Below are positions 3,824-51,393 of a DNA stretch of 64,000 nucleotides, one piece after another. Below the pieces are notes generated by a model that saw only the letters and a program-made list of their open reading frames with translations, was not told where the DNA came from and made no database searches. Location of the stretch: assembly GCA_963728205.1 (NCBI GenBank), contig CAVSIV010000001.1, positions 992,001-1,056,000 on the forward strand. The letters are read 5' to 3'. Made by a program: the position numbers and the translations under genes. This DNA comes from an uncultured Chloroflexia bacterium. GTDB taxonomy: Bacteria; Chloroflexota; Dehalococcoidia; UBA2979. The stretch's first letter is position 1; every line of letters starts with the position of its first letter.

Positions 3824-5560
3824 ATGTCCACCGCCCCCGATGACGCGGATCCCCCTGCAGCCGATCAGCGCGCCGCCCGTGCCGCGGTGCTCGACCTGCC
3901 CAACGACATCAAGAAGCTCCGCAATCGCGCGGCGCTGCTCTTCGTCGTCATCAACAACGCGCCGCTCGTGCTCTTCGGCACCGACGCGAGCGGCGTCATC
4001 CGCTTCTCCCGCGGCAAGGCGCTCGAGGCCCTCGGCCTCGAGCAGGACGAGCTCGTGGGCCAGTCCGTCTTCGACCTCTATGTGAACGAGCCGGCGGTGG
4101 CGGACTCCGCCCGCCGCGCGCTCGCCGGCGAGCTCGTCACGGCGCGGCTGCATCTCGACGGCGTCGTGCACGAGACCCGCTTCGGACCGATTCGCGACCG
4201 CGACGGGAACATCGCCGGGATGCTCGGCGTGGCGATCGACATCACCGAGCGCGCCCGGGCGGAAGACGACCTCGAGCGGCGGGCGCTGTTCGACGAAGTG
4301 ACCGGCCTGCCGAACCGCCAGGCGTTCCGCGACGCCGTCGACACGGAGATTGGCCGGCAGGAGGCGGTGGCGCCGTTCGCCGTGCTTGACGTCGGACTCG
4401 ACCGCTTCCGCGACGTGAACAGCACGTACGGATTCGACTACGGCGACCGCGTGCTGGAGCAGGTGGGGCACCGGCTGGGCGAGGCGCTCGGCGATCACGC
4501 GCTGGTCGCGAAGCTGGGGGGCGACGAGTACGGGATCCTCGTGCGGCACCCGTCGAGCATCGGCTCGGCGGACGCGCTGGGCGCGCACGTCATCGCCGCC
4601 TTCGAGGAGCCGGTCGTTGTCGACGACGAGCCGATCGCGATCGAGGCGAGCGTGGGCATCGCGCTGTACCCCGGGCACGGTAACTCGGGGGACTTGCTGA
4701 TGCGCCGCGCGAACACCGCGCTGCACGTCGCGAAGGGGGCGACGGCCGCGGTCGCCGGCTACCGGCGGGAGCGCGACGAGCCGCGCATCAACAACGTCCA
4801 GCTCCTGCGCGAGCTGCGCGAGGCGATCGAGGACGACCAGCTGCTCCTGCACTATCAGCCGAAGGTGCGCCTGAGCGATGGCAGCGTCGCCGGCGTCGAG
4901 GCGCTCATCCGCTGGCAGCACCCGACACGCGGCATGCTGCAGCCCGCCGCGTTCATCCCGCTCTCCGAGCGCACCGGCGTGGTGCGGCGGCTCGCGCCGT
5001 GGGTGATCGAGCGAGCGCTCAAGCGCGCGTTGACCTTGCAGGCGGGCGGCAGATCGGCGCTGCCCATCGCGGTGAACCTCTCGGCTCGCTCGTTCCAGGA
5101 CCGTGCGCTCCCCGACCGGGTGGGCGGCCTGCTCGACCTGTGGGGCGTTCCCGGCCAGCAGCTCGAGATCGAGATCACCGAAACCGCGATCATGTCGGAC
5201 CCCGAGCGCGCGCGGGAGATCTGCGCGCGGCTGCGCGACCTGGGCATCCGCATCGCCATCGACGACTTCGGAACGGGGCACTCGCCGCTCGTGTACCTGC
5301 AGCGGCTCGGCGTGCACGCGATGAAGATCGACATCTCCTTCGTGCGCGACCTCGGCCGCAGCGCCGAGAACCAGGCGATCGTGCAGGCGATCATCGACCT
5401 GGGGAAGCGCCTCGAGGTGGAGACGGTCGCCGAGGGCGTGGAGGACGCGCCGACCTACGAACGGCTGCTGGCCATGGGTTGCGACCAGGTGCAGGGCTTC
5501 CACGTCTCTTGCCCGATGAGCGGCGACGACCTGCTGCGTTGGCGCGACGCGCGCAACTGA
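3824..5560 (+). CDS. PAS-GGDEF-EAL protein (intact EAL, degenerate GGDEF)
   Basis: PAS/PAC ending DITER; GGDEY; EALIRW, EITE, DDFGTG, KID, AEGVE, QG. Confidence 0.93.
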   Translation: MSTAPDDADPPAADQRAARAAVLDLPNDIKKLRNRAALLFVVINNAPLVLFGTDASGVIRFSRGKALEALGLEQDELVGQSVFDLYVNEPAVADSARRALAGELVTARLHLDGVVHETRFGPIRDRDGNIAGMLGVAIDITERARAEDDLERRALFDEVTGLPNRQAFRDAVDTEIGRQEAVAPFAVLDVGLDRFRDVNSTYGFDYGDRVLEQVGHRLGEALGDHALVAKLGGDEYGILVRHPSSIGSADALGAHVIAAFEEPVVVDDEPIAIEASVGIALYPGHGNSGDLLMRRANTALHVAKGATAAVAGYRRERDEPRINNVQLLRELREAIEDDQLLLHYQPKVRLSDGSVAGVEALIRWQHPTRGMLQPAAFIPLSERTGVVRRLAPWVIERALKRALTLQAGGRSALPIAVNLSARSFQDRALPDRVGGLLDLWGVPGQQLEIEITETAIMSDPERAREICARLRDLGIRIAIDDFGTGHSPLVYLQRLGVHAMKIDISFVRDLGRSAENQAIVQAIIDLGKRLEVETVAEGVEDAPTYERLLAMGCDQVQGFHVSCPMSGDDLLRWRDARN

Positions 5561-5575
5561 CTAGGGCGGGAGCGG

Positions 5576-6185
5576 CTACGCCGCGACGCTGTTCAGCGCG
5601 GAACGGAACTGCTCGACGCGCTCGTGCAGGCGCGCCGCGACCGTCGGCTCGACCGGCGCAGGCCCCTCGACGTCGAAGCTGCGCTGCAGGCCATCGGAGT
5701 AGCCCGCGGCCTCGACCACGCCTCGCGCGCTGGCGAGCGCGGCATCGCCGTCGTTGACGCCGCGCTCGTGGTGCCGCGTCACCGTCGCCACGATCTGCTC
5801 CGGCAGGCGCCACGCGGCAAGCATCCTCGCCCCGGCGGCGGCGTGGTCCTCGCCGAAGAGCGCGCGCTCGGCGGCGAGCACCATGCCCTCGCTCTTCGCG
5901 CGTGCGCTGATGGCCGGGTACGCGAGCGGCGCGGCGGCGGCGAGTGCGAGCCGCCCGACGTCGTGCAGCAGCCCCGCGGAGAAGGCGGCGGCGCGGGTCC
6001 ACTTCGACTCCGCGGCGCTTTCGGCCGCGACGGCCGCGGCCAGGCGGAACGATGTAGTCGCGCCGCGCGCGAGCGACGCGCTCGAGGTCCTGCACCACGG
6101 ACTGGATCTGCTCGTGGATGTGCTCGGGGGTTTCCGCGCAGATCGCGACCGCTGGTGCGACCCGGCGAGCAACAGACGCGTTCAT
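5576..6185 (-). CDS. HDOD/HD-domain protein, short and probably frameshifted near 6047
   Basis: AFSAGLLHDVGRL...DHAAAGARMLAAWRLPEQIVATVTRHH; the plausible N-terminus MNASVARR is in another frame. Confidence 0.7.
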
Positions 6186-6249
6186 CGATGAGCTGGCTTC
6201 GCCCACGTGCGCCCTGCGCAGGGCCGGCGGGCAATGTGAGTCAGGAGAG

Positions 6250-6323
6250 TGGCTGGGGACCAGGGATTCGAACCCCGACTGACGGATCCAGAGTCCGCTG
6301 TCCTACCATTAGACGAGTCCCCA
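6250..6323 (-). tRNA. tRNA-Gln(CTG)
   Basis: Cloverleaf tggggac...gtcccca-gcca, anticodon loop ctCTGga, T-loop ttcgaat. Confidence 0.96.
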
Positions 6324-6388
6324 GCGAGGACCCCTAGCCTACCAAGCGAGGCCGTCGCGGTCACGAGGGGCGCCCGCAGAACCCGCGC

Positions 6389-7900
6389 CTACCCCCGCAG
6401 CGCCGTCGCCGCGCGCCGCAGCCGGCCCACCGCCGTCTCGCGCCCCACGATCTCGATCGTCTCGAAGAGCGGCGGCGCGATGCGCTTGCCGGTCACCGCG
6501 ATCCGGCACAGCGTGAACACGTCGCCCGCCTTCTCGCCGATGCCCTCGACCGTCTCACGCATCGCCGCCTCGATCGCGGCCGCCGACCAGTCGCCGAGCG
6601 ACTCCAGCGTCGCAGCGCACGCCTCCAGGCTGCCGGCCGCGCCGGCGGCGTCGTCGCGCCAGCGCTTCGCGGAGAGGAACTCCTCGACCGACGGCGTCGG
6701 CACCTCCGGCAGGAAGAAGAAGTCGACGAGGTCCACCGTCTCGCTGAGCAGCTTCACGCGCTCGCGGATCAGCGGCGTGAACGCGCGCACGAGGTCGCGG
6801 TCGATGGGCCGCGGCACCGACGGCGGGAGGTCCTGCTCGAGCCGCTCCGCGAACAGCTCGGCGAGCCGCTCCTCGGGCGTGTCGCGCAGGTAAACGCCGT
6901 TCATCCACTCGAGCTTCTGCGCGTCGAAGGCCGCGGCCGTCACGCTGACGTCGGCGAAGTCGAACGACGCGATCAGCTGCTCGCGCGTGAGGATCTCGGT
7001 CTTGTCGTCGTACGACCAGCCGAGCATCGCGAGGAAGTTGAACACCGCCTCGGGCAGGTAGCCCTCGGCCGCGTACTCGAGCACCGACTTCGCGCCGTGG
7101 CGCTTCGACAGCTTGCCGCCGTCCGGGCCGAGGATGACCGGCAGGTGCACGAACACCGGCCGCGCGTAGCCGAGCGCGTCGAACACGCGCGCGTGGCGCG
7201 GCGCCGACGGCAGCCACTCCTCGCCGCGCGTGACGTGCGTGACCTCCATCGCGTGGTCGTCGACCGGGTGCGCGAGGTGGTATGTCGGGAAGCCGTCCGA
7301 CTTGAGCAGGACGAAGTCGTCGAAGTTGCGGTTCTCGACGGTGATGTCGCCGCGCAGCAGGTCGTGCACGGTGGTCGCGCCGTCGTCGCGCATGCGGAAG
7401 CGGATCACGTGCGGCTCGCCGGCGGCCGCGCGGCTCGCGGCCTCGTGCGGGGCGATCACGCGGCACAGGCCGTCGTAGCCGGGCGGCTGCTTCGCGGCCT
7501 GCTGCTCCTTGCGCATCTCGGCGAGCCGCTCGGAGCTGCAGAAGCAGCGGTAGGCGTCGCCGGACGCGAGCAGGCGGTCGGCGGCGGCGCGGTAGCCGGG
7601 GAGCCGCTGCGACTGGACATAAGGCGCGAAGGGGCCGCCGATGTCGGGGCCTTCGTCCCAGTCGACGCCGAGCCAGCGCAGCGAGCCGAGGATCTTGTCG
7701 AGCGAGCCGGGGACCTCGCGGGTCTGGTCCGTGTCCTCGAGGCGGATGAAGAACTGCCCGCCGTTGCGGCGCGCGTAGAGCCAGCTCCACAGCGCCTGGC
7801 GGATGTTGCCGACGTGCGGATCGCCCGTCGGAGACGGCGCGTAGCGCACGCGCACGGGGCCGACGGCCGAGGAGAGGTGCGGCGGGGTCGGGGTCGTCAT
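6389..7900 (-). CDS. gltX: Glutamate--tRNA ligase
   Basis: RYAPSPTGDPHVGN (HIGH), RLEDTD, KLSKRHG (KMSKS). Confidence 0.97.
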   Translation of the reverse strand: MTTPTPPHLSSAVGPVRVRYAPSPTGDPHVGNIRQALWSWLYARRNGGQFFIRLEDTDQTREVPGSLDKILGSLRWLGVDWDEGPDIGGPFAPYVQSQRLPGYRAAADRLLASGDAYRCFCSSERLAEMRKEQQAAKQPPGYDGLCRVIAPHEAASRAAAGEPHVIRFRMRDDGATTVHDLLRGDITVENRNFDDFVLLKSDGFPTYHLAHPVDDHAMEVTHVTRGEEWLPSAPRHARVFDALGYARPVFVHLPVILGPDGGKLSKRHGAKSVLEYAAEGYLPEAVFNFLAMLGWSYDDKTEILTREQLIASFDFADVSVTAAAFDAQKLEWMNGVYLRDTPEERLAELFAERLEQDLPPSVPRPIDRDLVRAFTPLIRERVKLLSETVDLVDFFFLPEVPTPSVEEFLSAKRWRDDAAGAAGSLEACAATLESLGDWSAAAIEAAMRETVEGIGEKAGDVFTLCRIAVTGKRIAPPLFETIEIVGRETAVGRLRRAATALRG

Positions 7901-8880
7901 GCCCGGGAGCTACCTCCGTCGACGGCGGCCGCGCCGTCGTCGCAGGCGCCGAGGCCCTCCGACGGCGCGACGCCGTGGCGCGCGCGCAGGATCGCGACGG
8001 CGCGGCGCATGTCGTTCGGCAGCGGCGCCTCGAACTCGCGCCACGCGCCGTTCGACGCGAGCGTGAAGCCCAGCCGCGTGGCATGCAACGCCTGGCGGTC
8101 GATCAGGTCCGACGGGCGGCCGTACATCTGATCGCCGATGATCGGGTGTCCGATGGCCTCCATGTGCACGCGAATCTGATGGGTGCGCCCCGTGAAGATG
8201 CGGACTTCGAGCAGCGCGGCCTCGTCGCCGTACTGCTCCAGCACCCGGTACTGCGTACGCGCCGCCTGGCCCCGCTCCACGACGGCGCGGCGCGTCGGCT
8301 CGGTCGGGTCCGGGCCGAGCGGCGCGTCGATGATGCCCTCGGGCGGCTCCATGCGGCCCTCGACGATGCCGAGGTAGATCTTCAGCGTCGCGCGGACGCG
8401 CCACTGTTCCTTCATCGCGTACTGCGCCGCGTCGGACTTCGCCAGCGCGATCACGCCGGAGGTGTCGCGGTCGAGCCGGTGCACGATGCCGCCGCGCTCG
8501 CTGTCGTCGATCTCGCGGACCTCGGGGTAGTGCGCGCGCACGGCGTTGATCAGCGTCACGGCGTTCATGCCGGGCCGCGGGTGCACGACCAGCCCGGGCT
8601 GCTTGTTCAGGACGAGCGTCTCTTCGTCCTCGTAGATGATGTCGAGCGGGACCTCGGAGGCCTGCAGGTCGAGGTCCGGCACGACGGGTTCGACGACCTC
8701 GATCTGCGCCGTCGGCGCGACGTGCGCGGCCGGCCGCTCGACGATGCGGCCGTCGACGGTGACCTGCCCGTCCTCGATCAGCCGGCGCACCTGCGAGCGC
8801 GACAGCTCGGGCATCGCCGAGACGATCGCGACGTCGAGGCGGGCGTCGTCGCCGGCGGCGAAGTGGCGCTTCGGGATCAC
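7897..8880 (-). CDS. rluD: RluA/RluD-family pseudouridine synthase with S4 domain
   Basis: RLD...SRSQVRRLI, NKQPGLVVHP, HRLDRDTSG, GRTHQIRVH; GTG start with gagg SD. Confidence 0.93.
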   Translation of the reverse strand: MIPKRHFAAGDDARLDVAIVSAMPELSRSQVRRLIEDGQVTVDGRIVERPAAHVAPTAQIEVVEPVVPDLDLQASEVPLDIIYEDEETLVLNKQPGLVVHPRPGMNAVTLINAVRAHYPEVREIDDSERGGIVHRLDRDTSGVIALAKSDAAQYAMKEQWRVRATLKIYLGIVEGRMEPPEGIIDAPLGPDPTEPTRRAVVERGQAARTQYRVLEQYGDEAALLEVRIFTGRTHQIRVHMEAIGHPIIGDQMYGRPSDLIDRQALHATRLGFTLASNGAWREFEAPLPNDMRRAVAILRARHGVAPSEGLGACDDGAAAVDGGSSRA

Positions 8881-41436: not shown

Positions 41437-41763
41437 TCAGCGCCGCGCCCGCCGGATCAGGCGGGCCAGACCGCCGCGCCGGCGGCGCGCGCCGCGACCG
41501 AAGAGCGAGACGTCGACGACCGCCACCGGTCGGAACACCACGCCGACGAACACGTTGACCTCGGGACGCCGCGGCTGCATCGCGCGTCGCGCCGCGAGCG
41601 CGATCGCCACCAGCGTCAGCGGCAGCACCGCTCGCCGCCGGCGGGCGAAGCGTCGGCCGCGCGCCCAGGGCGGGCGGCCGGCCCCGCCGGGACCGGGCGG
41701 CATGTGCGCTTGCCCCTCGTCCGGACGCGATGTGGATGGCTGGTCTCCCTGGTACTCGTTCAT
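41437..41763 (-). CDS. Hypothetical small basic protein
   Basis: ORF with a short hydrophobic stretch, preceded by DosR-like boxes; no recognised motif. Confidence 0.35.
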   Translation of the reverse strand: MNEYQGDQPSTSRPDEGQAHMPPGPGGAGRPPWARGRRFARRRRAVLPLTLVAIALAARRAMQPRRPEVNVFVGVVFRPVAVVDVSLFGRGARRRRGGLARLIRRARR

Positions 41764-41966
41764 GGCGACAGCGTCGCCGGGCCTCGACGAACGGGACAAG
41801 TGCGGATCGTCCCGCGGCCCGCGCGGCGAACGTCATGGACCCCGCCCGCACGGGGGCTCCGGAGGGGCGCTTCCGGGTTGCGCAAAACCGGGATAGCCTC
41901 GGCGCTCAGCTCCCCCCGCTGAGACGCATCGGCGCCCGCCCCGCGCGCGCCGAAGGGCAGGCGCGA

Positions 41967-42809
41967 GTGCACCCAGGGCTGTACTTCCTGCTTCTCTACG
42001 CGGCCGCAATCGCCGCCGGTGCCTTCGGCGCGCTCCTCGGCCTCGGCGGCGGCATCATCATCGTCCCGGTCCTCACGCTGCTCTTCCGCGTCGACATCCA
42101 CTACGCCATCGGCGCGAGCATCGTCTCCGTGATCGCGACGTCGAGCGGGGCGGCTGCCACCTACGTGAAGGACCGCATCGCGGACATGCGCCTGGGCATG
42201 TTCCTGGAGTCGGCGACGACGACGGGGGCGATCGCCGGCGCCTTCGTCGCCGGACTGGTCGCGGGGCAGGTGCTGTTCTTCGTCTTCGCGATCGTCCTCA
42301 TCTACTCGGCCGGCATGATGTTCCGGAAGTACTTCTTGCCGGAGCCGCCGCCCGCCAGGCCCGACCGCTACGCACGCGCGCTGCGCCTGGGCGGCCACTA
42401 CTTCGACCCGGCGCTCGGGCGCGAGATTCAGTACGAGGTGACGGGCGTGCCCGGCGGCTTCGGTCTCGCGATGGTCGCCGGCGGCGTCTCCGGCCTGCTC
42501 GGCATCGGAGGCGGCTCGCTCAAGGTCCCCGCGATGGACCTGCTGATGCACGTCCCGCTCAAGGTTTCCTCTGCGACGAGCAACTTCATGATCGGCGTGA
42601 CGGCGGCGACCAGCGCCGGCGTGTACTTCACGCGCGGCGACGTGAACCCGTTCATCGCCGCGCCCGTCGCGATGGGCGTCCTCAGCGGAACGGTCGTGGG
42701 GACGCGGCTGCTCAAGCGACTGCCGAGCGAGCAGCTGCGCGTGATCTTCGCGGTCGTGCTGCTGATCACCGCGGCGCAGATGCTCGTGAAGGGGCTCGGC
42801 GTTGGATGA
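41967..42809 (+). CDS. TauE/SafE (TSUP) family exporter
   Basis: GALLGLGGG, SGLLGIGGG, ATSNFMIG. Confidence 0.92.
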   Translation: MHPGLYFLLLYAAAIAAGAFGALLGLGGGIIIVPVLTLLFRVDIHYAIGASIVSVIATSSGAAATYVKDRIADMRLGMFLESATTTGAIAGAFVAGLVAGQVLFFVFAIVLIYSAGMMFRKYFLPEPPPARPDRYARALRLGGHYFDPALGREIQYEVTGVPGGFGLAMVAGGVSGLLGIGGGSLKVPAMDLLMHVPLKVSSATSNFMIGVTAATSAGVYFTRGDVNPFIAAPVAMGVLSGTVVGTRLLKRLPSEQLRVIFAVVLLITAAQMLVKGLGVG

Positions 42810-42813
42810 GCGC

Positions 42814-43275
42814 ATGAGCCGCGAGGCGGACCCCGGGGCGGCCGAGGGCGAGACCGAGGATCGCGCCGTCGCCGAGATGGAGACGACCGTCGCGATCGCC
42901 CTGCGCTGGGGTGTGCTTCTGAGCTTCGCGGTGATCCTGCTCGGCAGCGCCTGGCTCTTCGCCTCCGGCGACACCGGTTACGCCGGCGTGTCCGTCTCCG
43001 GCGCCCACGCGGCCGACGCGCTCACCACCTACCACGCGGGCGGCGCGGGACAGTGGTTCCCGACGACCCCGACCGAGGTGATCGCGGGCGTGCGCGCCGG
43101 CCGGCCGTACGCCGTGATCACGCTCGGCGTGCTGGTGCTGATCGCGACGCCGGTGTTTCGGGTCGCCGTGTCGGTGATCACGTTCCTCTGGGAGCGCGAT
43201 CGCATGTACGCGCTGATCACGCTGTACGTGCTGCTGGTGCTGCTCGTGAGCTTCGTGATCGGCAAGGGCGGCTAG
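42814..43275 (+). CDS. DUF1634-family membrane protein
   Basis: LRWGV, GVLVLIATPVFRV; usual partner of TSUP genes. Confidence 0.85.
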   Translation: MSREADPGAAEGETEDRAVAEMETTVAIALRWGVLLSFAVILLGSAWLFASGDTGYAGVSVSGAHAADALTTYHAGGAGQWFPTTPTEVIAGVRAGRPYAVITLGVLVLIATPVFRVAVSVITFLWERDRMYALITLYVLLVLLVSFVIGKGG

Positions 43276-44582
43276 CCCGCGCCGCGCCCCCCACCCCCCG
43301 CGCCTCCGCGCTCCTCCGTCCGCGGTGCGAAGCGCACACGCCGCACCACGGCGCCGCGCGCGTCGAGCACCGTGACCCGCCAGCCATCGACGTCCACGAA
43401 ATCGCCCACCGCCGCTATCCGCCCGAGCTCGGTCATCACCAGCCCGGCCACCGTCGAATACGCCCCGTGCGGCGACGGCAGCTCGACGCCGAGGTCCGGC
43501 AGGTCGTGCACCGGGTAGCGCCCGAGCAGCTCGATGCTCCCGTCGTCGCGTCGCTGTGCCGACACGACGTCGCGGTCGTACTCGTCGAAGATCTCCCCGA
43601 CGAGCTCCTCGACCAGGTCCTCGACCGTCACCATGCCGTCGATGCCGCCGAACTCGTCGGCGACCACCGCCATCTGCTGGTGGGCCGCCTGCATGCGGCG
43701 CAGCGCCTCCAGCACGCGCACGGTCTCGGGGAAGATCGGCGCCTCGCGGACGTGCTCGTGCAGCGGCGAGGCCGGGTCCGCGGCCAGCAGGTCGATCACC
43801 TCCACGATGCCGGCGAGGTGATCGAGATCGCCGTCGGCGACGGGGGCGCGGTGGTGCGCGGCCGCCGCCAGGCGGTCGAGCGCGTCGCGGGTCGTGAGGT
43901 TGCGGTCGAGGAAGAAGACGGCGCGCCGCGGCACGAGCACGTCGCGCAGCGGACGCTCGCCGGCCTCCACGGCGCCGACGATGATCCGCCGCTGCAGGTC
44001 GGTCATCGACGCCTGGCCGGCCGCGAGATGGCGGAACTCCTCGGGCGACATCTCCGTGCGCGGCTGATCCGTGCTGCCGCCGGCGGCGCGCACCACGAGG
44101 TTCGTCGCGACCCCGAGCACCCATACCGCGGGTCGCGTCGCGCGGCCCACGAGCACCAGCGGCCGCACGGCGACCAGCGACCAGCGCTCCGCCCACTGCA
44201 TCGCGAGCCGTTTCGGTGCGAGCTCGCCGACGACGAGCGTGACGAACGTGAGCGCCAGCGTGACGAGCACGACCGCGACCGCGCCGGCCGCGCCGCCGAA
44301 CGCCGGCTCGAGTGTCGACTCCAGCTGTCCCGCCAGCCCGACGGCTGCCGTCGCCGAGGCGAGGAAGCCCGTCAGCGTGATGCCGATCTGCACGGTCGCG
44401 AGGTACTCGTTCGGGTCGCGCGCCAGCCGCGCGACGAGCCGCCCGCGGGCGCCGCGGGCGCGCTCCAGGCGCCGCAGCTGGCCCTCGTTCAGCGAGAGCA
44501 GCGCGATCTCCGAGCCCGAGAACGCGGCGTTGACCAGGATCAGGACCGCGACCACCGCCAGCCGCGCCCAGGCATCGCTCAT
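43272..44582 (-). CDS. Hemolysin/CNNM-CBS-CorC family protein
   Basis: NAAFSGSEIA, GELAPK, DEFGG..G.VT.ED.VEELVGEI. Confidence 0.93.
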   Translation of the reverse strand: MSDAWARLAVVAVLILVNAAFSGSEIALLSLNEGQLRRLERARGARGRLVARLARDPNEYLATVQIGITLTGFLASATAAVGLAGQLESTLEPAFGGAAGAVAVVLVTLALTFVTLVVGELAPKRLAMQWAERWSLVAVRPLVLVGRATRPAVWVLGVATNLVVRAAGGSTDQPRTEMSPEEFRHLAAGQASMTDLQRRIIVGAVEAGERPLRDVLVPRRAVFFLDRNLTTRDALDRLAAAAHHRAPVADGDLDHLAGIVEVIDLLAADPASPLHEHVREAPIFPETVRVLEALRRMQAAHQQMAVVADEFGGIDGMVTVEDLVEELVGEIFDEYDRDVVSAQRRDDGSIELLGRYPVHDLPDLGVELPSPHGAYSTVAGLVMTELGRIAAVGDFVDVDGWRVTVLDARGAVVRRVRFAPRTEERGGAGGGGRGAG

Positions 44583-44680
44583 GCGCGCAGGATACGGGTC
44601 GCGCTAGGATTCGGCGGATCCGCCGTCCGGCGGACGCGGCCCGCAGCCGCCCGCGGGCGGCGCGAGCGAGAGGACCCACG

Positions 44681-45538
44681 ATGGCCGTCGACAGCTTCAA
44701 GTACCTCCCGCGCAGCTTCCGCGATGGCTACGACATCCCGTACCAGGCGGACACGCCTGCGTGGGCGCCGCTCGGCGTGCCCGTCGAGCAGGCGACCGTC
44801 GCCCTGATGACGTCGGCCGGCCTCTACCTCAAGGACGAGCAGCCGCCGTTCGACCTCGAGCGTGAGCAGGCGAACCCGCTGTGGGGCGACCCCTCGTACC
44901 GGGTCATCCCGCGCGACGTGCGCCAGGAGCAGATCGGCGCCGCGCACCTGCACCTCAACACGCGCGACTTCTTCGAGGACTTCAACGTCGCCCTCGCCAT
45001 CCGCGCCTTCGACGAGCTGGCCGCCGAGGGACGCATCGGGGCGGTGGCCGACGAGCACTACTCCTTCATGGGCTACCAGGAGCGGTCGCTCGAAGGCTGG
45101 CGCACGCGCTACGCCCCCGAGGTCGCGAAGCGGCTGCGCGACGCCGGCGTCAACGCGCTGGTGCTGGCGCCCGCCTGACCGGACTGCTGCCGGAACGTGC
45201 CCGTGCTGGCACGTCTCATCGAAGAGGCCGGCGTCGCGACCGTGATCGTCACGATGATGCCCGACGTCGCCGAGAAGTTCCGTCTCTCGCGGGTGGTCGG
45301 CGTGCAGTTCCCGTTCGGCCACGCGTTCGGCATGCCGCACGACCGCGCGATGCAGCGCGCGGTCGCCGAGGCGGCGGTGCGGTTGCTCGGTGAGGCGATG
45401 GCCCCGGAGACGCGGCTTGACCTCGACATCGCGTGGCCGGTCGACGACCGGACGGCGTATCGCGACTGGCAGCCGTCGGAGCCGAGTCCAATCGTCGCCT
45501 ACAATGCCGCGCGCCGCGCGAACCCGGACGCGCGGTAG
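44681..45538 (+). CDS. GrdB/PrdB-family selenoprotein; in-frame TGA at 45176-45178 read as Sec
   Basis: TSAGLY, GDPSYRVIP, HYSFMG, then APA-U-PDCCRNV..ARLIEEAGVATV..FPFG in the same frame; hairpin downstream. Confidence 0.88.
45195..45214 (+). promoter_or_regulatory. Candidate bacterial SECIS element
   Basis: acgtgcc-cGTgct-ggcacgt; apical loop starts 23 nt after the UGA. Confidence 0.7.
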
Positions 45539-45593
45539 CCGCAGCGAGCAGGCGTCACCCCCCGGCGGGCGGCAGGCGTCAGTCCTCAGCGGA

Positions 45594-45693
45594 GCGTCAA
45601 AGCGGCGGCAGACATGCCGCCGACAGAAGCGCGGCGCCAGCCGCGGACTGCGTCCGCGTCCTGTCGGCGGCATGTCTGCCGCCGCTTTGACGC
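45594..45693. repeat. REP/REPIN-like palindromic element, copy B
   Basis: Perfect 33-bp inverted arms gcgtcaaagcggcggcagacatgccgccgacag. Confidence 0.92.
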
Positions 45694-45715
45694 GAGCAGG
45701 CCCTACACTGCCCTC

Positions 45716-45919
45716 GTGCCCACCGACGCCGAGCGCCAGGCCTACCGCGACGCCTTCGACGACTGGCAGCGCAAGCTGCAGGACGTGCACGCCTTCCTCC
45801 TCGACGGGGACCGCCAGGGCAGGCGGCCCGACGAGATCAAGGGCATGCTCAACCGCGAGGCGCGTGCGAAGGCGGCCTACGACGCCGCGCGGCTCCGCCT
45901 GCTCGGCATCGACGAGTAA
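45716..45919 (+). CDS. Small helical hypothetical protein (67 aa), probably leaderless
   Basis: TACACT-6nt-GTG; good GC3; KGMLNREARAKAAYDAARLRLLG. Confidence 0.75.
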   Translation: MPTDAERQAYRDAFDDWQRKLQDVHAFLLDGDRQGRRPDEIKGMLNREARAKAAYDAARLRLLGIDE

Positions 45920-45964
45920 GGAACGTTCTTGCGTGCGTCGGCCCCGGGGCCGACGCTGGCTGCG

Positions 45965-46798
45965 ATGACCATCAACCCCGCCACTCCGTCGTCGGCTCCC
46001 GCCGCGCCGCCGCCCCACCCCGACGGCGGCTGGCGGGGCTTCGCGCGACGCGGCTACCCGCGCTCGATCCTGATCGGCGCCGCGTTCGCGGCCGCCTGGT
46101 CGCCGTGCATCGGCCCGATCCTGGGCGTCGTGCTGACGCTCGCGGCTGCCTCCGGCACCGCGGCCCAGGGCGCGCTGCTGCTCGTCTGCTACGGGCTCGG
46201 GCTCGGCGTGTGGTTCCTCGCCATGGGGCTCTTCTTCGGCTGGCTCTCGCCGCGCCTGCGACGTCTCCAGCGCTACATGCAGCCGCTGATGATCGCGAGC
46301 GGCGTCTTCTTCATCGCCATCGGCGGGCTGATGTTCCTCGGCGAGTTCCAGCGCCTGAACAACTACTTCGCGGGCTTCGGCTTCTTCTTCGGCCAGACCG
46401 CATCGACCGAGCAGAGCCTCAGCAGCGGGGTCACGGGGTGGCTCGGTCCGGCGGTGGCGTTCTTCGGCGGCGTGATCTCGTTCCTCTCGCCCTGCGTGCT
46501 GCCGCTCGTCCCGGCGTATCTCGTCAGCATCGCGGGCGAGACGGTGCTCGGCGGCGAGCAGACGACGAGCGCGGAACGGCGTCGCATCGTCCGGCACGCG
46601 GTCGCCTTCGTGATCGGGTTCACCGTCGTGTTCGCCGTGCTCGGCGCGTCGGCGGGATTCGTCGGCGGGCTGATCACGAACCAGCTCGACCTCCTGACGC
46701 GCGTGGGCGGGGTCGTGCTGGTCATCCTCGGCATGCAAATGAGCGGCCTCATCCATTTGCCATACCTGGATCGCACATATTCATTCCAGGTTGATTGA
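45965..46798 (+). CDS. ccdA: CcdA/DsbD-beta thiol-disulfide transporter with swapped halves
   Basis: AFAAAWSPCIGPIL precedes GVISFLSPCVLPLVPAYL. Confidence 0.9.
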   Translation: MTINPATPSSAPAAPPPHPDGGWRGFARRGYPRSILIGAAFAAAWSPCIGPILGVVLTLAAASGTAAQGALLLVCYGLGLGVWFLAMGLFFGWLSPRLRRLQRYMQPLMIASGVFFIAIGGLMFLGEFQRLNNYFAGFGFFFGQTASTEQSLSSGVTGWLGPAVAFFGGVISFLSPCVLPLVPAYLVSIAGETVLGGEQTTSAERRRIVRHAVAFVIGFTVVFAVLGASAGFVGGLITNQLDLLTRVGGVVLVILGMQMSGLIHLPYLDRTYSFQVD

Positions 46799-46853
46799 GA
46801 TCGCGCCCCAGTGGGCGTGCGGCCACACGTGGCGCGTGGTTAGACTGTGGCCC

Positions 46854-47300
46854 ATGGACGCCGACTTTGGGATCGACCTCGAGGCCATCATCCGCGTCGT
46901 GGAGGAGGCGGACGTCTTCATCGTCCGCTTCGGGCTGATCGACCAGCGGCTGCTGGTGGACACCCGACCGAACGACAGCGGCACGCCGTTCATCCGCGTC
47001 GTGCCGCCGGCCTCGTCGGCCGAAGAGCGCTACCGCTACCTCCAGCGCGAGCGACCGGGCATGCCGCTTCCGGACCAGATCACGGTCTTCCAGTGGCCGC
47101 GCGCCGTGCAGACGATGAAGGACCTGGGGCTCTGGGACCGCATCGAGCAGCGGCTCGTCCGCGTCGGCGGCGAGCCCGCCGGCACGCTCGCCGAGCACGC
47201 CTTCGCCGACGCCCGTCGACTCGAGCGCGCCGACCTCTTCGCCGCGATCCGCGGCGGCGAGGGCTACGAGACGCTCTGGTCCCGCGAGGGCAACGAGTAG
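46854..47300 (+). CDS. Hypothetical protein, probably leaderless
   Basis: TAGACT-7nt-ATG; strong GC3 bias; ends GEGYETLWSR. Confidence 0.75.
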   Translation: MDADFGIDLEAIIRVVEEADVFIVRFGLIDQRLLVDTRPNDSGTPFIRVVPPASSAEERYRYLQRERPGMPLPDQITVFQWPRAVQTMKDLGLWDRIEQRLVRVGGEPAGTLAEHAFADARRLERADLFAAIRGGEGYETLWSREGNE

Positions 47301-47316
47301 CCGCCCGAGCATCGCC

Positions 47317-47474
47317 GGCAAGCGGCGGCAGATACGCCGCCGATGTGCCACCGACATCAGTCGTGCCCGCCGTGAAGTTCGTGCCGCCGTGAAATGGCGT
47401 CTGGACGCCGCGGGGCTCGGGGACGCGGCCAGAGGGCCGCGTCGATATCGGCGGCGTGTCTGCCGCCGCTTGCC
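47317..47474. repeat. REP doublet with long spacer, copy E
   Basis: ggcaagcggcggcagatacgccgccgat...atcggcggcgtgtctgccgccgcttgcc. Confidence 0.85.
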
Positions 47475-47489
47475 TCGGGGCGCGGTCGG

Positions 47490-47855
47490 CTACGCCTGTA
47501 CGATCCCGACCGCCTGTCCGTCCGGTGCTCGCACCAGCGCGATGTGTGCGCCGCCGGGCCCCTGCTGCCGGATCGGGACGAGCACCTTCGCCCCGGCCGC
47601 CTCCGCCCGCGGCACCGTCGCCCGGAGGTCGGCGACGCGAAACCACAGCGTGACCGCCGGCGCTGCGCCGGCGGGGAGCGCGCGCAGCGTCCCGTGCACG
47701 TCGAAGTCGCCCGGCCCGCCGGGGTCGATGCCCACGTTCGCGCCGCCATTGGTCGACGCGTCGTCGAACGTCCAGTCGAAGACCTCGGCGTAGAAGCGAC
47801 GCGCGCCCTCGGGGTCGGGCGTGGCGATGTGGAAGAAGACGAGCGGGCTGGGCAA
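47490..47855 (-). CDS. VOC/glyoxalase family protein
   Basis: FFHIATPDPEGARRFY, WFRVADL, APDG; TTG start after aggagg. Confidence 0.87.
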   Translation of the reverse strand: MPSPLVFFHIATPDPEGARRFYAEVFDWTFDDASTNGGANVGIDPGGPGDFDVHGTLRALPAGAAPAVTLWFRVADLRATVPRAEAAGAKVLVPIRQQGPGGAHIALVRAPDGQAVGIVQA

Positions 47856-48019
47856 GCGGACCTCCTCGCGCTCGCGCGCCGGCGAGGGGCCGCCGGGCCG
47901 GTCGCGATCATACGGGCGCGGCGCCCGCTCGCGGCCGCGCAAGATGCCAAGCCGCACCTCTGGTACGCTCGGCCGCATCACCGCTTTCGGCCGTCACCGC
48001 CCCGGCGAGGGATCGCGTC

Positions 48020-49090
48020 GTGCCCAACCCCAGCGCCAGTCCGAGCGTCATCGACCTCCGCTCCGACACCGTCACGCGGCCGTCGGATGCCATGCGCCGC
48101 GCGATGGCGGAGGCCGAGGTCGGCGACGACGTCCTCGGCGACGACCCCACCGTCCAGCGCCTCGAAGCGGCCGCCGCCGAGCGCATCGGCAAGGAGGCGG
48201 CGCTCTACGTGCCCAGCGGGACGATGGCGAACCTCGTCGCGCTGCTCACGCACTGCGGGCGCGGCGACGAGGCGATCGTGGGCTCCGAGGCGCACATCCT
48301 GCACCACGAAGCCGTCGGCGCGTCGGCGCTGGGCGGCATCTCGCTGCGCACGGCGCGCAACGACGCGCACGGTCGCATTGACCCGGCCGAGGTGGCGGCG
48401 CTGGTGCGCACGAACGTGCCGCCGCGCACCGGGCTCGTGTGCCTCGAGAACACGCAGAACCGCTGCGGCGGCGCGGCGATCCCCGCGCACGAGATCCGCG
48501 CGGTCGCCGACGCCGCGCACGCGGCCGGCGCTGCCGTGCACATCGACGGCGCGCGCATCTTCAACGCCGCCGCCGCGCTGGAGACCGACGCCGCGAGCCT
48601 CGTCGCGCCCGCGGACAGCGTCTCGTTCTGCTTCTCGAAGGGCCTCGGCGCGCCCGTCGGCTCCGTGCTGACCGGCTCCCGCGAGTTCATCGACCGCGCG
48701 CGCCCGATCCGTCGCCAGGTCGGCGGCGGCATGCGGCAGGCCGGCGTGATCGCGGCCGCCGCCCTCTACGCGCTCGAGCACCACGTGGACCGGCTCTCCG
48801 AGGACCACGCGAACGCGCGGAGCCTCGCGCAGGGGCTGGCCGGGCTGCCGTCGCTGCACCTCGAGGACCCGGTGCCGGCGTCGAACATGGTGTTCTTCGA
48901 GCTCCGCGGCGTCGACGGCGCCGACTTCCGCCGGCGCCTGCGCGACGTCGGCGTGCTCTGTAGCGCGATGGCGCCGCAGCGCATGCGCATGGTGACGCAC
49001 CTCGACGTTTCCGCCGAGCAGATCGACGAGGCCGTGGCGCGCATCCGCCGCGTGCTGGAGGCGGCGCCGACGGCGCCCACCACGCCGTAG
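48020..49090 (+). CDS. ltaE: Low-specificity L-threonine aldolase
   Basis: [43 protein letters not shown]. Confidence 0.95.
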
Positions 49091-50092
49091 TGACCACGCG
49101 CCGCGCCGTCCGCCCGCCACGCCCCGGCGCTGGCGCCGCCTCCCCGCGCTCCGGGCGCGCCGACCGCTCGGTCGGGGGCGCGCCGAGGCGCGCCCCGTCG
49201 GCCGATCCCGCGCGGCACGCATCGCCGGAACACCCAAGCGGCGGCAGAGATGCCGCCGACAGACGCGCGGCGCCAGCCGCGGACTGCGTCCGCGTCCTGT
49301 CGGCGGCATCTCTGCCGCCGCTTGGGGCGACGCTCCGGCCCGGCCTGCTGGCCGTGCTCGCGGCCGTCGCGTTGCTCGCCGCCGCCTGCTCCGCCTCGAG
49401 CTCGAGCGGCCCCACGTCCGACGTCGTCGCCGGGACGCCCGGCTTCGCCGACGGCGAGCAGTTCACCTACGCGGTCGTCGACGACAACAAGGCGGTCGTC
49501 GGCCTCGACGTATTCTCGACGCACCTGCAGGGCGACACCTACGTGCTCGAGCAGTCGTACACCGAGTCCGCGTCGTCCGTGCCCGCCGGCCAGCAGCCGA
49601 CGACCGACGTCGTCCGCGTGACCGTGCACCGCGACACGCTCAAGCCGATCTCCGGCACGCGCGAGAATCGACCGGCGGACCGACCAGGGCCGGTCGCAGG
49701 AGTCGTACGCGTGGCAGTACGGGGCGGACGACCGCGGCCGCGCGACGATGACGGTCACGCACACGGCCGCCGGCAGTACCGAGGAGCACACGCTGCGCCT
49801 GCGCGACCACTACTACGACAACGAGAGCTCGCTGTGGCTCTGGCGCACGCTGGCGTTCACGACGGGCTACGACGAGCAGTACGTCTCCGTGAACGCGATC
49901 GAGGGCAGCCAGCAGACGGTCGACGTGCGCGTCCCACAGCGCCAGCCGCAGGCCGTCCCCGCCGGAACGTTCGACACGTGGCGACTCCTCGTCCGCAACG
50001 GCCGTGCAATCCGCACGGCGTGGGTGAACACGGCCGCCCCCGGCGATGTCGTGCAGTGGGACAACGGCACGGTGCTCTTCCAGCTCCAGTAG
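49090..50092 (+). CDS. Beta-rich lipoprotein (DUF3108-like); +1 frameshift near 49666; start uncertain
   Basis: Lipobox LLAAAC; after removing one A: IDRRTDQ...YYDNESSLWLWR...VPAGTFDTW. Confidence 0.7.
49233..49326. repeat. REP/REPIN-like element, copy C (within the ORF starting at 49090)
   Basis: Perfect 30-bp arms cccaagcggcggcagagatgccgccgacag. Confidence 0.9.
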
Positions 50093-50104
50093 ACGAACGG
50101 GGGG

Positions 50105-50809
50105 TCAGCCGCCGGCGCGGCCCGCCGCCCACACGCACCCGCGGCCGGCGGCGCGCGCCGCATCCTCCAGCTGACCGAGCCCGTCGTGCAGCGCGCCGCC
50201 GGCGCCGGACGGTCGAACGAGCCCTTCGCTCACCAGCGTCGCATCGATGGAGTGCCCGTCCGACGTGTAGACGTAGCGCAGCTCGTGGCCGGAGGCATCC
50301 TCCTGCGGACCGTCGGCGCGCAGGAGCACTTCGCCCGCCGCCAGCTCCTTCAGCCGCTGCGCGGCCAGCGTCGCGCACGCCGACCCGGCGGCCGGCGGCT
50401 CGACGCCAATCAGCCGCACGGTCAGCGCCGTCCCCAGCGCAGACACGTCCAGCGTCGCCCCGTCGACGACGCGCACGACGGTGACCGGCGTCAGCGCCGC
50501 CGGGTCGGCGGCGCGCAGCGCGTCGACCGGCGGCGCGGGCGTCTCGGGGGCCTGCACGTGCCGCGCGAGCAGCGCCGCGACAATCACCGACGCCGCGACG
50601 AGGATCCCCAGCACGAGCGTCCAGCGCCCGAGCGTGCGCCGCCGCCTCTCCTCCGCCGCCCCGGGCGGCGCAGGCAGCGGCCGCCGGCGCCGCTCCGGTC
50701 GCGTGCGGCTCGCGTTCAGGCGATGCAGCGTGGGCGGCGCCGACTCCTCCTCCGGGCGCTCGGAGCGCTCCGGCCGCCGCAGCGGCCGCGGCCGGTGGTC
50801 GTCGCTCAC
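50105..50809 (-). CDS. Membrane-anchored thermonuclease (SNase)-fold protein with degenerate active site
   Basis: VVRVVDGAT, VRLIGVEPP, LRYVY, LVSEG, ARAAGRGCVW. Confidence 0.8.
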   Translation of the reverse strand: MSDDHRPRPLRRPERSERPEEESAPPTLHRLNASRTRPERRRRPLPAPPGAAEERRRRTLGRWTLVLGILVAASVIVAALLARHVQAPETPAPPVDALRAADPAALTPVTVVRVVDGATLDVSALGTALTVRLIGVEPPAAGSACATLAAQRLKELAAGEVLLRADGPQEDASGHELRYVYTSDGHSIDATLVSEGLVRPSGAGGALHDGLGQLEDAARAAGRGCVWAAGRAGG

Positions 50810-51393
50810 GACGCCTCCGCCGGTCCTACCACGGGGGCCGACGCCTCCTCGACCGACTCGGCCAGAACGCCCCAGCTCGCGCGCACCGTGCGCAACGTCG
50901 CGTCGAACGGCCCGACCTCGTTGAACGCCAGCGCCACGAGACCGCCCGCACGGTATCGCTCGCGTTCCTCCACGGTCGGCCCGGTGGCGGCCGCTCCCGG
51001 CAACGCGTCGACGCTCTCGAGGAGGTCGCGCACCTGCCACTCGAACACCTCGGCCGCGCCCACCGCGAACACCCACAGCGCCGCCGGCTTCGCCCCGGGC
51101 GCCGGCGGCGACGACTCCGTGTCGACGGCCGCGCTCCACATCCCGCTGATCACGGGCGCCAGCCCGCGCATGACGAATCGCATGTGCGCGGGCGACGCCG
51201 CGAAGGGCTCGAGCGCTGTCAGCCCCGTGAGCCACGCGGCCACGATGACGCGGTCGGCCGACGCCGCGACGGTGACCGCCTCCACGCCATCCGCGTCGCG
51301 CAGGGCATGCGCGAGCTCGAGCGCGCGCTCCACGCCCGCCGCGTCGGCGTCCGGCTTCAGCCGCGCCGCGACCAGGTGCAGGAGGTGCGACAC
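50806..51393 (-). CDS. Dabb-like (stress-responsive alpha/beta barrel) protein
   Basis: HLVAARLKPD...FAASPAHMRFV pattern, apparently duplicated. Confidence 0.6.
   Translation of the reverse strand: MSHLLHLVAARLKPDADAAGVERALELAHALRDADGVEAVTVAASADRVIVAAWLTGLTALEPFAASPAHMRFVMRGLAPVISGMWSAAVDTESSPPAPGAKPAALWVFAVGAAEVFEWQVRDLLESVDALPGAAATGPTVEERERYRAGGLVALAFNEVGPFDATLRTVRASWGVLAESVEEASAPVVGPAEAS

Follow-up and report, generated by a model that had tools for sequence, protein, structure and literature searches.

A conserved CcdA homologue with circularly permuted halves in an uncultured Dehalococcoidia bacterium

The stretch of DNA analysed here (the window, 64,000 nucleotides; contig CAVSIV010000001.1 of assembly GCA_963728205.1, positions 992,001 to 1,056,000 of the forward strand) belongs to an uncultured bacterium of the Dehalococcoidia and carries a gene for a homologue of CcdA, a membrane protein that conveys reducing power out of the cell and consists of two mutually homologous three-helix repeats. 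Our sequence comparisons confirm that the two halves of the window protein are encoded in reverse order, with the canonical transmembrane helices (TM) 4 to 6 first and TM1 to TM3 second. This circular permutation had been proposed in an initial annotation of the window, and it is upheld here by two reverse-order alignments to a CcdA of known structure and by concordant positions in Pfam profiles.

Order of the two halves

Residue numbers throughout are those of the 277-aa form that starts at ATG 45965 (45965..46798, plus strand; translation P0001), which is the form of the open reading frame (ORF) given in the initial annotation. The first half (46046..46399, plus strand, residues 28-145) corresponds to canonical TM4-TM5-TM6 and the second (46430..46789, plus strand, residues 156-275) to canonical TM1-TM2-TM3. 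Each repeat has a single Cys in a Pro-Cys motif of its first helix: Cys48 (codon 46106-46108) stands in W45-S-P-C48-I-G-P, within AFAAAWSPCIGPIL, and Cys177 (codon 46493-46495) in S175-P-C177-V-L-P, within GVISFLSPCVLPLVPAYL. The sequence WRGFARRG lies close to the N-terminus of the ORF, the polar stretch GQTASTEQSLSSG occupies residues 143-155 and the C-terminus reads GLIHLPYLDRTYSFQVD; the motif strings, both Cys and the ends were thus located at the residues that had been assigned to them before.

When all PDB sequences were searched with phmmer, the CcdA of Thermus thermophilus (5vkv_A) was matched with an overall E of 1.3e-27, in two pieces. Residues 163-262 aligned with positions 6-93 of the 5vkv chain (E 1.6e-12) and residues 34-136 with positions 113-211 (E 8.4e-14), a reversal well outside what chance would give. 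The Pfam profile DsbD_TM (PF02683) was likewise matched in two stretches, with 57.2 bits against a cut-off of 27.1 (E 1.9e-15): residues 164-265 fell on positions 6-103 of its 219, and a six-frame PF02683 scan of the whole assembly placed the first half (residues ~35-120) on positions 129-211. In agreement with this, residues 29-114 matched positions 116-198 of the 199 in DsbD_2. The window protein therefore lacks the collinear order of TM1-3 followed by TM4-6, against both the Pfam profile and 5vkv, and is a homologue of permuted connectivity. The two local matches in reversed order that the initial annotation had expected from an alignment to PF02683 were thus obtained, and there is no collinear alignment to canonical CcdA.

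Since the repeats are homologous, the order might in truth be canonical, with the alignments having assigned each half to the repeat that it does not represent. A profile of the TM4-6 segment does match the TM1-3 regions of other proteins, but at about 12 bits, while on the TM4-6 regions of the same proteins (P0127 and P0134) it scores 99-111 bits, which is 8- to 9-fold higher and makes the repeat assignment unambiguous. Besides, phmmer gave only the two swapped alignments to 5vkv, with no cross-wise piece even at E <= 10; the repeat-specific motifs W-x-P-C-x-G-P and S-P-C-x-L-P stand in swapped places; and the alignments to a close canonical homologue described below (P0131) reach within 4 and 8 residues of its ends. 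We regard a mismatching of repeats as extremely improbable.

Conservation of the swapped order

A word-indexed protein search scored 8000 candidates, of which 6014 reached E <= 0.001. The lengths of the best 120 homologues range from 249 to 299 aa, their coverage of the query from 88 to 100% and their identity to it from 61 to 100%, and in all 121 sequences (the query and these 120) the W-x-P-C-x-G-P motif comes before the S/T-P-C motif. Among 40 related genomes, 22 of the 24 that belong to the same family gave one collinear full-length match, including the single-contig genomes G005, G007 and G008; the two family genomes with no match are 80% and 77% complete. The gene is single-copy in most genomes of the family. 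A genome of a second family (G025) likewise carries the permuted form. The majority of the remaining families in the class gave two distinct matches arranged in the canonical way, as in G034, G030, G037 and G027. In an even sample of the class (151 genomes, of which 99 had a match at E <= 1e-8) the order TM4-6, TM1-3, here called type I, was found in families f1 (6/6, besides G000, the window's own genome), f2 (3/3) and f20 (1/1, confirmed by segment order). The type I proteins come from Chloroflexi or Dehalococcoidia metagenome genomes and from marine surveys, and are labelled at source as 'cytochrome c biogenesis protein CcdA', 'sulfite exporter TauE/SafE family protein' or 'hypothetical'. 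Homologues with the swapped order, which the initial annotation had advised looking for, were therefore found.

These results bear on whether the swapped order is an artefact of assembly or binning, that is, a chimeric join within a canonical ccdA or between two fragments. The assembly (4.13 Mb, 89% complete) has an estimated contamination of 5.6%, and no piece among the sequencing runs listed spans the whole stretch. Four soil-metagenome DNA runs, all of one study, cover shares of 0.07-0.14 of it and may derive from the source sample. Against this stand soil-metagenome contigs that cover 46285-46435 and 46312-46462, through TM6 and the linker, with one mismatch each, and above all the same order in the 121 sequences, which are of many sources, and in the 22 family genomes, single-contig ones among them. 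Because of this agreement the artefact is practically refuted, and the swapped order is a conserved family trait.

Cut point, linker and route of origin

P0131, a close homologue of 288 aa, served as the canonical comparator. Residues 31-139 of the window protein aligned with its positions 176-284, and residues 156-275 with positions 9-135; over each half, canonical and permuted forms share 40-48% identity. The 16-residue linker that leads from the old TM6 to the old TM1 (46382..46429, plus strand, residues 140-155), predicted to lie outside and containing a conserved Glu149, stands where the last 4 and the first 8 residues of P0131 lie. The 40-residue TM3-TM4 loop of the canonical protein (P0131 136-175) is replaced by a new C-tail of 2 residues and a new N-tail. 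With the linker and the tails so placed by the P0131 alignments, the earlier proposal that the old termini are fused and that the new ones lie in the former central loop is supported.

We believe that tandem duplication, in-frame fusion and trimming of the ends is the most likely route of origin, since it would be expected to leave a linker exactly where the canonical C- and N-ends meet. On this scheme, a canonical ccdA would have been duplicated in tandem and fused in frame, the outer halves of the fused duplicate would then have been lost, leaving the permuted form, and the permuted gene would have taken over from the canonical one in the family of the window genome. Three longer proteins seemed at first to carry a 'TM4-6 plus TM1' extension, and these turned out to be alignment run-on into non-helical linkers.

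Conserved residues and membrane topology

In an alignment of 44 type I sequences with identities to the query of 36-80% (A2), residues W45, P47, C48, G50 and P51 of the first motif and S175, P176, C177, P180 and P183 of the second are invariant. Because both Cys and their flanking Pro and Gly residues are unchanged over this range of identity, the catalytic core appears to be under purifying selection. The linker residue Glu149, which has no counterpart in canonical CcdA, is invariant in alignment A1 and at least 90% conserved in A2.

Hydropathy analysis gave eight overlapping stretches, which we grouped into six predicted TM segments (34-61, 69-92, 109-127, 161-189, 212-236 and 248-262 in P0001) with no Lys or Arg within them. 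The N-tail, the TM5-6 loop, the TM1-2 loop and the C-tail were assigned to the inside, and the TM4-5 loop, the linker and the TM2-3 loop to the outside. In 57 homologues the mean number of Lys plus Arg was 12.4 in the inside-assigned and 2.2 in the outside-assigned segments, and in the diverse sequence set the corresponding means were 11.8 and 2.4. The wider segment around the linker (128-160) had a mean of 1.2 Lys plus Arg and 3.6 Asp plus Glu. Canonical CcdA has an N-out/C-out topology. On account of the positive-inside count (12.4 versus 2.2), the window CcdA is predicted to be N-in/C-in, with both termini in the cytoplasm, in agreement with what had been suggested from the Arg-rich start of the protein.

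Genome context and proposed function

The permuted gene is the sole DsbD-family gene found, as PF02683 and PF13386 gave no other match in the assembly. On the same contig, about 430 kb from ccdA (G000:C1:604000-619000, L017), lies an operon for System I cytochrome c maturation (ccm). It encodes a 183-aa AhpC-TSA/Redoxin/Thioredoxin protein of the CcmG type (G000:C1:615360-615908), CcmF with its C-terminal domain, CcmH, an ABC ATPase read as CcmA, CcmB and a CcmC-type match, followed by CtaA and a UbiA-family prenyltransferase (CtaB-like). No ResB was found in the genome. The Redoxin family has 13 matches in it, 11 of them above the cut-off. Three of the Redoxin-family matches contain one in-frame TGA each (C6:984335-984706, C6:730282-730680 and C1:367823-368170), and these are possible further selenoproteins or broken genes.

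Relatives of the window gene lie next to genes of this kind. The permuted ccdA of G025 (L114:4965-5717) shares its last base, 5717, with the start of the 218-aa AhpC-TSA/Redoxin gene that it abuts. In G005 (L108, G005:C1:558822-571636) a permuted copy on the minus strand (4986-5780) abuts a 359-aa thioredoxin-domain gene (5780-6856), and a second permuted copy is found about 1.3 kb off (7078-7944), so that the two paralogues flank the thioredoxin-domain gene. A Crp-family regulator and an Lgt gene are also near the G005 locus, and the genome has three permuted ccdA copies overall.

In System I, CcmG draws reducing power through a membrane carrier of the DsbD/CcdA family. We consider it likely that the window protein is a functional, circularly permuted CcdA, a six-helix thiol-disulfide electron carrier of the arrangement TM4-5-6, linker, TM1-2-3, because it is encoded by the only DsbD-family gene found, because the ccm operon is present and because the copies of relatives abut redoxin genes. 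We infer that its function is unchanged from that of canonical CcdA. The Cys48/Cys177 pair would take electrons from cytoplasmic thioredoxin and hand them to thioredoxin-like proteins outside the membrane, among which the CcmG-like redoxin of the ccm operon would be the main candidate acceptor, possibly together with other redoxins. Both ends of the chain would lie in the cytoplasm rather than outside, and the short acidic linker would join the old outer termini.

Several observations weigh against this reading or against parts of it. The proposed partner is a guess from genes about 430 kb away, and no thioredoxin-like or ccm gene is present among the 11 flanking ORFs scanned (41730-51393); the earlier remark that none is adjacent thus stands for these neighbours, but not genome-wide, as the ccm operon and its CcmG-like redoxin are present. 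A canonical ccdA could lie in the missing part of the 89%-complete assembly. No 12-helix or partly duplicated intermediate was seen among the 120 longer homologues listed (of 178 matches), and no RNA run containing the stretch appears among the sequencing runs listed. Structure prediction was of modest help. A first AlphaFold2 (AF2) model, built with 57 close homologues, had merged helices, a predicted local distance difference test score (pLDDT) of 69.1 and a predicted template modelling score (pTM) of 0.58; Foldseek found no PDB match for it at E <= 0.001 and put 5vkv at rank 23 (E 4). A second one, built with the 44 more diverse type I sequences, reached pLDDT 72.8 and pTM 0.70, again with no Foldseek match at E <= 0.001 (5vkv E 0.75). 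When this second model was compared with 48,161 chains by VIA-align, the two highest ranks went to NqrE (Z 8.8) and RnfA (Z 8.5), other six-helix inverted-repeat proteins, and 5vkv came third with a Z of 7.6, an rmsd of 4.8 and 203 of 224 residues aligned; the models are mediocre, and all three Z values are within the range that the tool calls common for helical bundles. Both programs are sequential aligners, and a protein with swapped repeats can be superposed by them on a canonical one only by pairing unlike repeats. The AF2 model is compatible with a CcdA-like fold.

The lack of an RNA run would also suit a gene left over from a duplication of ccdA and now decaying or without function, and a permutation that arises through duplication does pass through redundant copies. 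However, the frame is open, the catalytic motifs are invariant down to 36% identity, the gene is single-copy in most family genomes and it is preceded by a good Shine-Dalgarno motif, so that a remnant is very improbable.

Gene start and neighbouring genes

The initial annotation had described a single clean ORF of 277 aa. The open frame is present as stated, but its likelier extent is 45929..46798 (plus strand), 289 aa from a TTG start to a TGA stop at 46796-46798. TTG 45929 is more likely to be the start than ATG 45965, because this in-frame TTG is preceded, at a distance of 6 bases, by the Shine-Dalgarno motif AAGGA (45918-45922), because inspection of the sequence upstream of the ATG found no such motif and because the database copy of the protein (P0002) is the 289-aa form.

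Immediately upstream is a small ORF of about 67 aa (45716..45919, plus strand; we read GTG 45716 as its start, and TAA 45917-45919 is its stop), which has no Cys and no match in Pfam or NCBIfam. As its stop codon overlaps the Shine-Dalgarno motif of ccdA, the two genes are probably co-transcribed, and the small ORF is a candidate operon partner. Of 17 related loci searched by tblastn, 15 have it directly 5' of their permuted ccdA. This linkage may be plain synteny, since other neighbours are conserved to a similar degree (threonine aldolase in 13 of the 17 loci, a DUF3108-like gene in 14 and a Dabb-like gene in 12).

Further upstream, about 0.4 kb 5' of ccdA, a PrdB/GrdB-like gene (44681-45538, plus strand) has an in-frame TGA at codon 166 (45176-45178, ...LAPA-U-PDCC...). 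Its read-through product of 285 aa matches TIGR04483 PrdB (E 4.3e-37, below the cut-off) and the C-terminal part of Pfam GRDB, and it is probably a selenoprotein. A check for a selenocysteine insertion sequence (SECIS) 3' of the TGA found a hairpin, with a fold no better than that of shuffled sequences (z 0.48). None of the 17 related ccdA loci contains the PrdB-like gene.

A repeated intergenic element of about 164 nt was also observed in this region, with copies at 45524-45687 and 49160-49323 (78% identity) and a partial copy at 47436-47472. Each copy contains a perfect inverted repeat of 30-33 nt with a 34-nt spacing, which gives it the look of a repetitive extragenic palindromic (REP) or miniature inverted-repeat transposable (MITE) element. 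The element yields spurious ORF starts, for example at 45614.

On a rival reading, the permuted CcdA homologue has another job than cytochrome c maturation, serving for example a different outer acceptor (a peroxiredoxin, a methionine sulfoxide reductase or a selenoprotein pathway) or carrying a cargo other than electrons. Such a job would fit the lack of adjacent ccm or thioredoxin genes, the tight linkage to the small conserved ORF of no family, the PrdB-like selenoprotein gene close by, the 13 Redoxin-family matches, which offer many possible acceptors, and a conserved Glu149 that canonical CcdA lacks. However, both catalytic Cys motifs are unchanged, the genome, which encodes CcmG, CcmF and CcmH, yielded no other DsbD-family gene, the permuted genes of relatives adjoin TlpA/ResA-like redoxin genes, just as canonical ccdA genes do, and the PrdB-like gene is absent from the related loci. 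We therefore think another job rather unlikely and keep to the reading of the window protein as a working CcdA.

A second permutation and the number of origins

A HMMER search over 1.84 billion cluster representatives gave 8570 matches at E <= 0.001, and the best 150 of these were classified with three segment profiles. Among these 150, 130 were canonical, 7 were type I (one of them a fragment), 3 were fragments with TM4-6 alone or TM4-6 plus TM1, and 10 showed a further order, TM2-3, TM4-6, TM1, here called type II, in which the cut is in the TM1-TM2 loop. BLASTP confirmed this order. In the window's class, the type II pattern was found in families f21 (6/6), f23 (6/6) and f33 (one genome), and five genomes were assigned to type II by segment order (G158, G105, G046, G044 and G056; loci L115, L116, L118, L119 and L120, respectively). 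The 80 loci listed from a collection of species genomes comprised 74 canonical and 6 type II loci (L018, L022, L025, L031, L067 and L096); close relatives of the window genome fall outside this listing, which accordingly has no bearing on the spread of type I. The six type II loci are four Chloroflexota records, with Anaerolineae among the names, one of Woesearchaeota and one of Trueperaceae, and one type II cluster is named Eremiobacteraeota.

To compare all forms in one maximum-likelihood tree, the segment blocks were re-ordered (68 rows, 222 columns). The window protein fell within a type I clade of 11 rows (support by the Shimodaira-Hasegawa-like approximate likelihood ratio test, SH-aLRT, 89), the type I protein P0152 grouped with canonical P0140 and P0172 (98), and the type I protein P0127 with canonical P0131 (94). 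Type I is thus divided among three places in the tree, and type II between two or more. A single clade holding types I and II together was rejected by the approximately unbiased (AU) test (p 0.003), while a single type I clade (p 0.07, or 0.27 without P0152) and a single type II clade (p 0.086) were not. The rejection of the joint clade supports at least two independent permutation events in CcdA, and more are possible. A broader claim, put forward tentatively and with somewhat more doubt than confidence, is that CcdA was permuted more than once, at the TM3/TM4 and TM1/TM2 loops, that the termini came to be cytoplasmic each time and that the canonical gene was fully replaced in some lineages.

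Implications

To our knowledge, circular permutation of a multi-helix membrane protein is very rarely seen in nature. Here, a single bacterial class holds matched natural pairs of canonical and permuted CcdA at 40-48% identity per half. Such pairs offer a way to ask whether the electron transfer proposed for CcdA (alternating-access or elevator-type) depends on how the two inverted repeats are connected, how the order of insertion and the side of the termini affect folding, and how inverted-repeat carriers evolve through duplication and loss. The conserved outer linker, with its Glu149, may have come to take part in acceptor docking. If permutation has indeed been repeated, CcdA would be a natural test case in which helix and insertion order of an inverted-repeat carrier are free, and this would suggest selection for cytoplasmic termini, for example because the transfer of an N-tail across the membrane is spared. 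On the practical side, collinear profile models cover only half of a permuted CcdA gene, and annotation and structure-based inference will therefore be misled.

Comparison with known systems

The window protein shares with canonical CcdA (5VKV; PF02683) the homology of both halves, six hydrophobic helices and one Pro-Cys per repeat, and relatives of its gene adjoin TlpA/ResA-like redoxin genes. It differs in its reversed repeats, in the conserved acidic linker that joins the old termini, in new termini that lie in the old TM3-TM4 loop and in a predicted N-in/C-in topology in place of N-out/C-out. With the beta domain of DsbD and with CcdA-redoxin fusions it has in common the superfamily core and, presumably, the chemistry; the NCBIfam models for DsbD and TsoB match residues 154-265, far below their cut-offs, and periplasmic alpha and gamma domains are absent from the window protein. 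All of the 120 longer homologues listed are CcdA proteins of canonical order, most of them with fused redoxin-type Pfam domains, and the five CcdA-redoxin fusions that we examined have about 90 extra residues between TM3 and TM4. Many Chloroflexi/Anaerolineae proteins of 515-709 aa (P0316-P0433) combine a canonical CcdA with C-terminal redoxin domains.

Type II is likewise a circular permutation of CcdA in the same class, with the old TM6 fused to the old TM1 and both termini predicted inside. It differs from type I in that the cut is in the TM1-TM2 loop and only one helix has moved, and in its wider spread (Chloroflexota, Woesearchaeota, Trueperaceae and Eremiobacterota records).

A description of a permuted CcdA or DsbD was not found in the full-text literature, whose coverage leaves out most subscription journals; within that scope, the statement of the initial annotation that no natural permutant has been described agrees with our search. 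The terms 'circular permutation', 'CcdA' and 'DsbD' co-occur in one paper, only in its reference list, and the main text of a paper on the ScsB/DsbD superfamily does not contain 'permut'. Permuted CcdA is thus a real and conserved connectivity variant of a well-known protein that is apparently undescribed. The closest analogue that we found in print is the circular permutation proposed to have arisen between the two membrane thiol oxidoreductase families VKOR and DsbB by gene duplication and deletion (PMC4555120). That case, too, concerns thiol-disulfide enzymes of the membrane in which the threading of the helices would differ by a circular permutation. VKOR and DsbB are two distant four-helix families with no clear sequence similarity, and the proposal is a fold-based hypothesis, whereas the canonical and permuted forms of CcdA are 40-48% identical in each half and coexist in one class.

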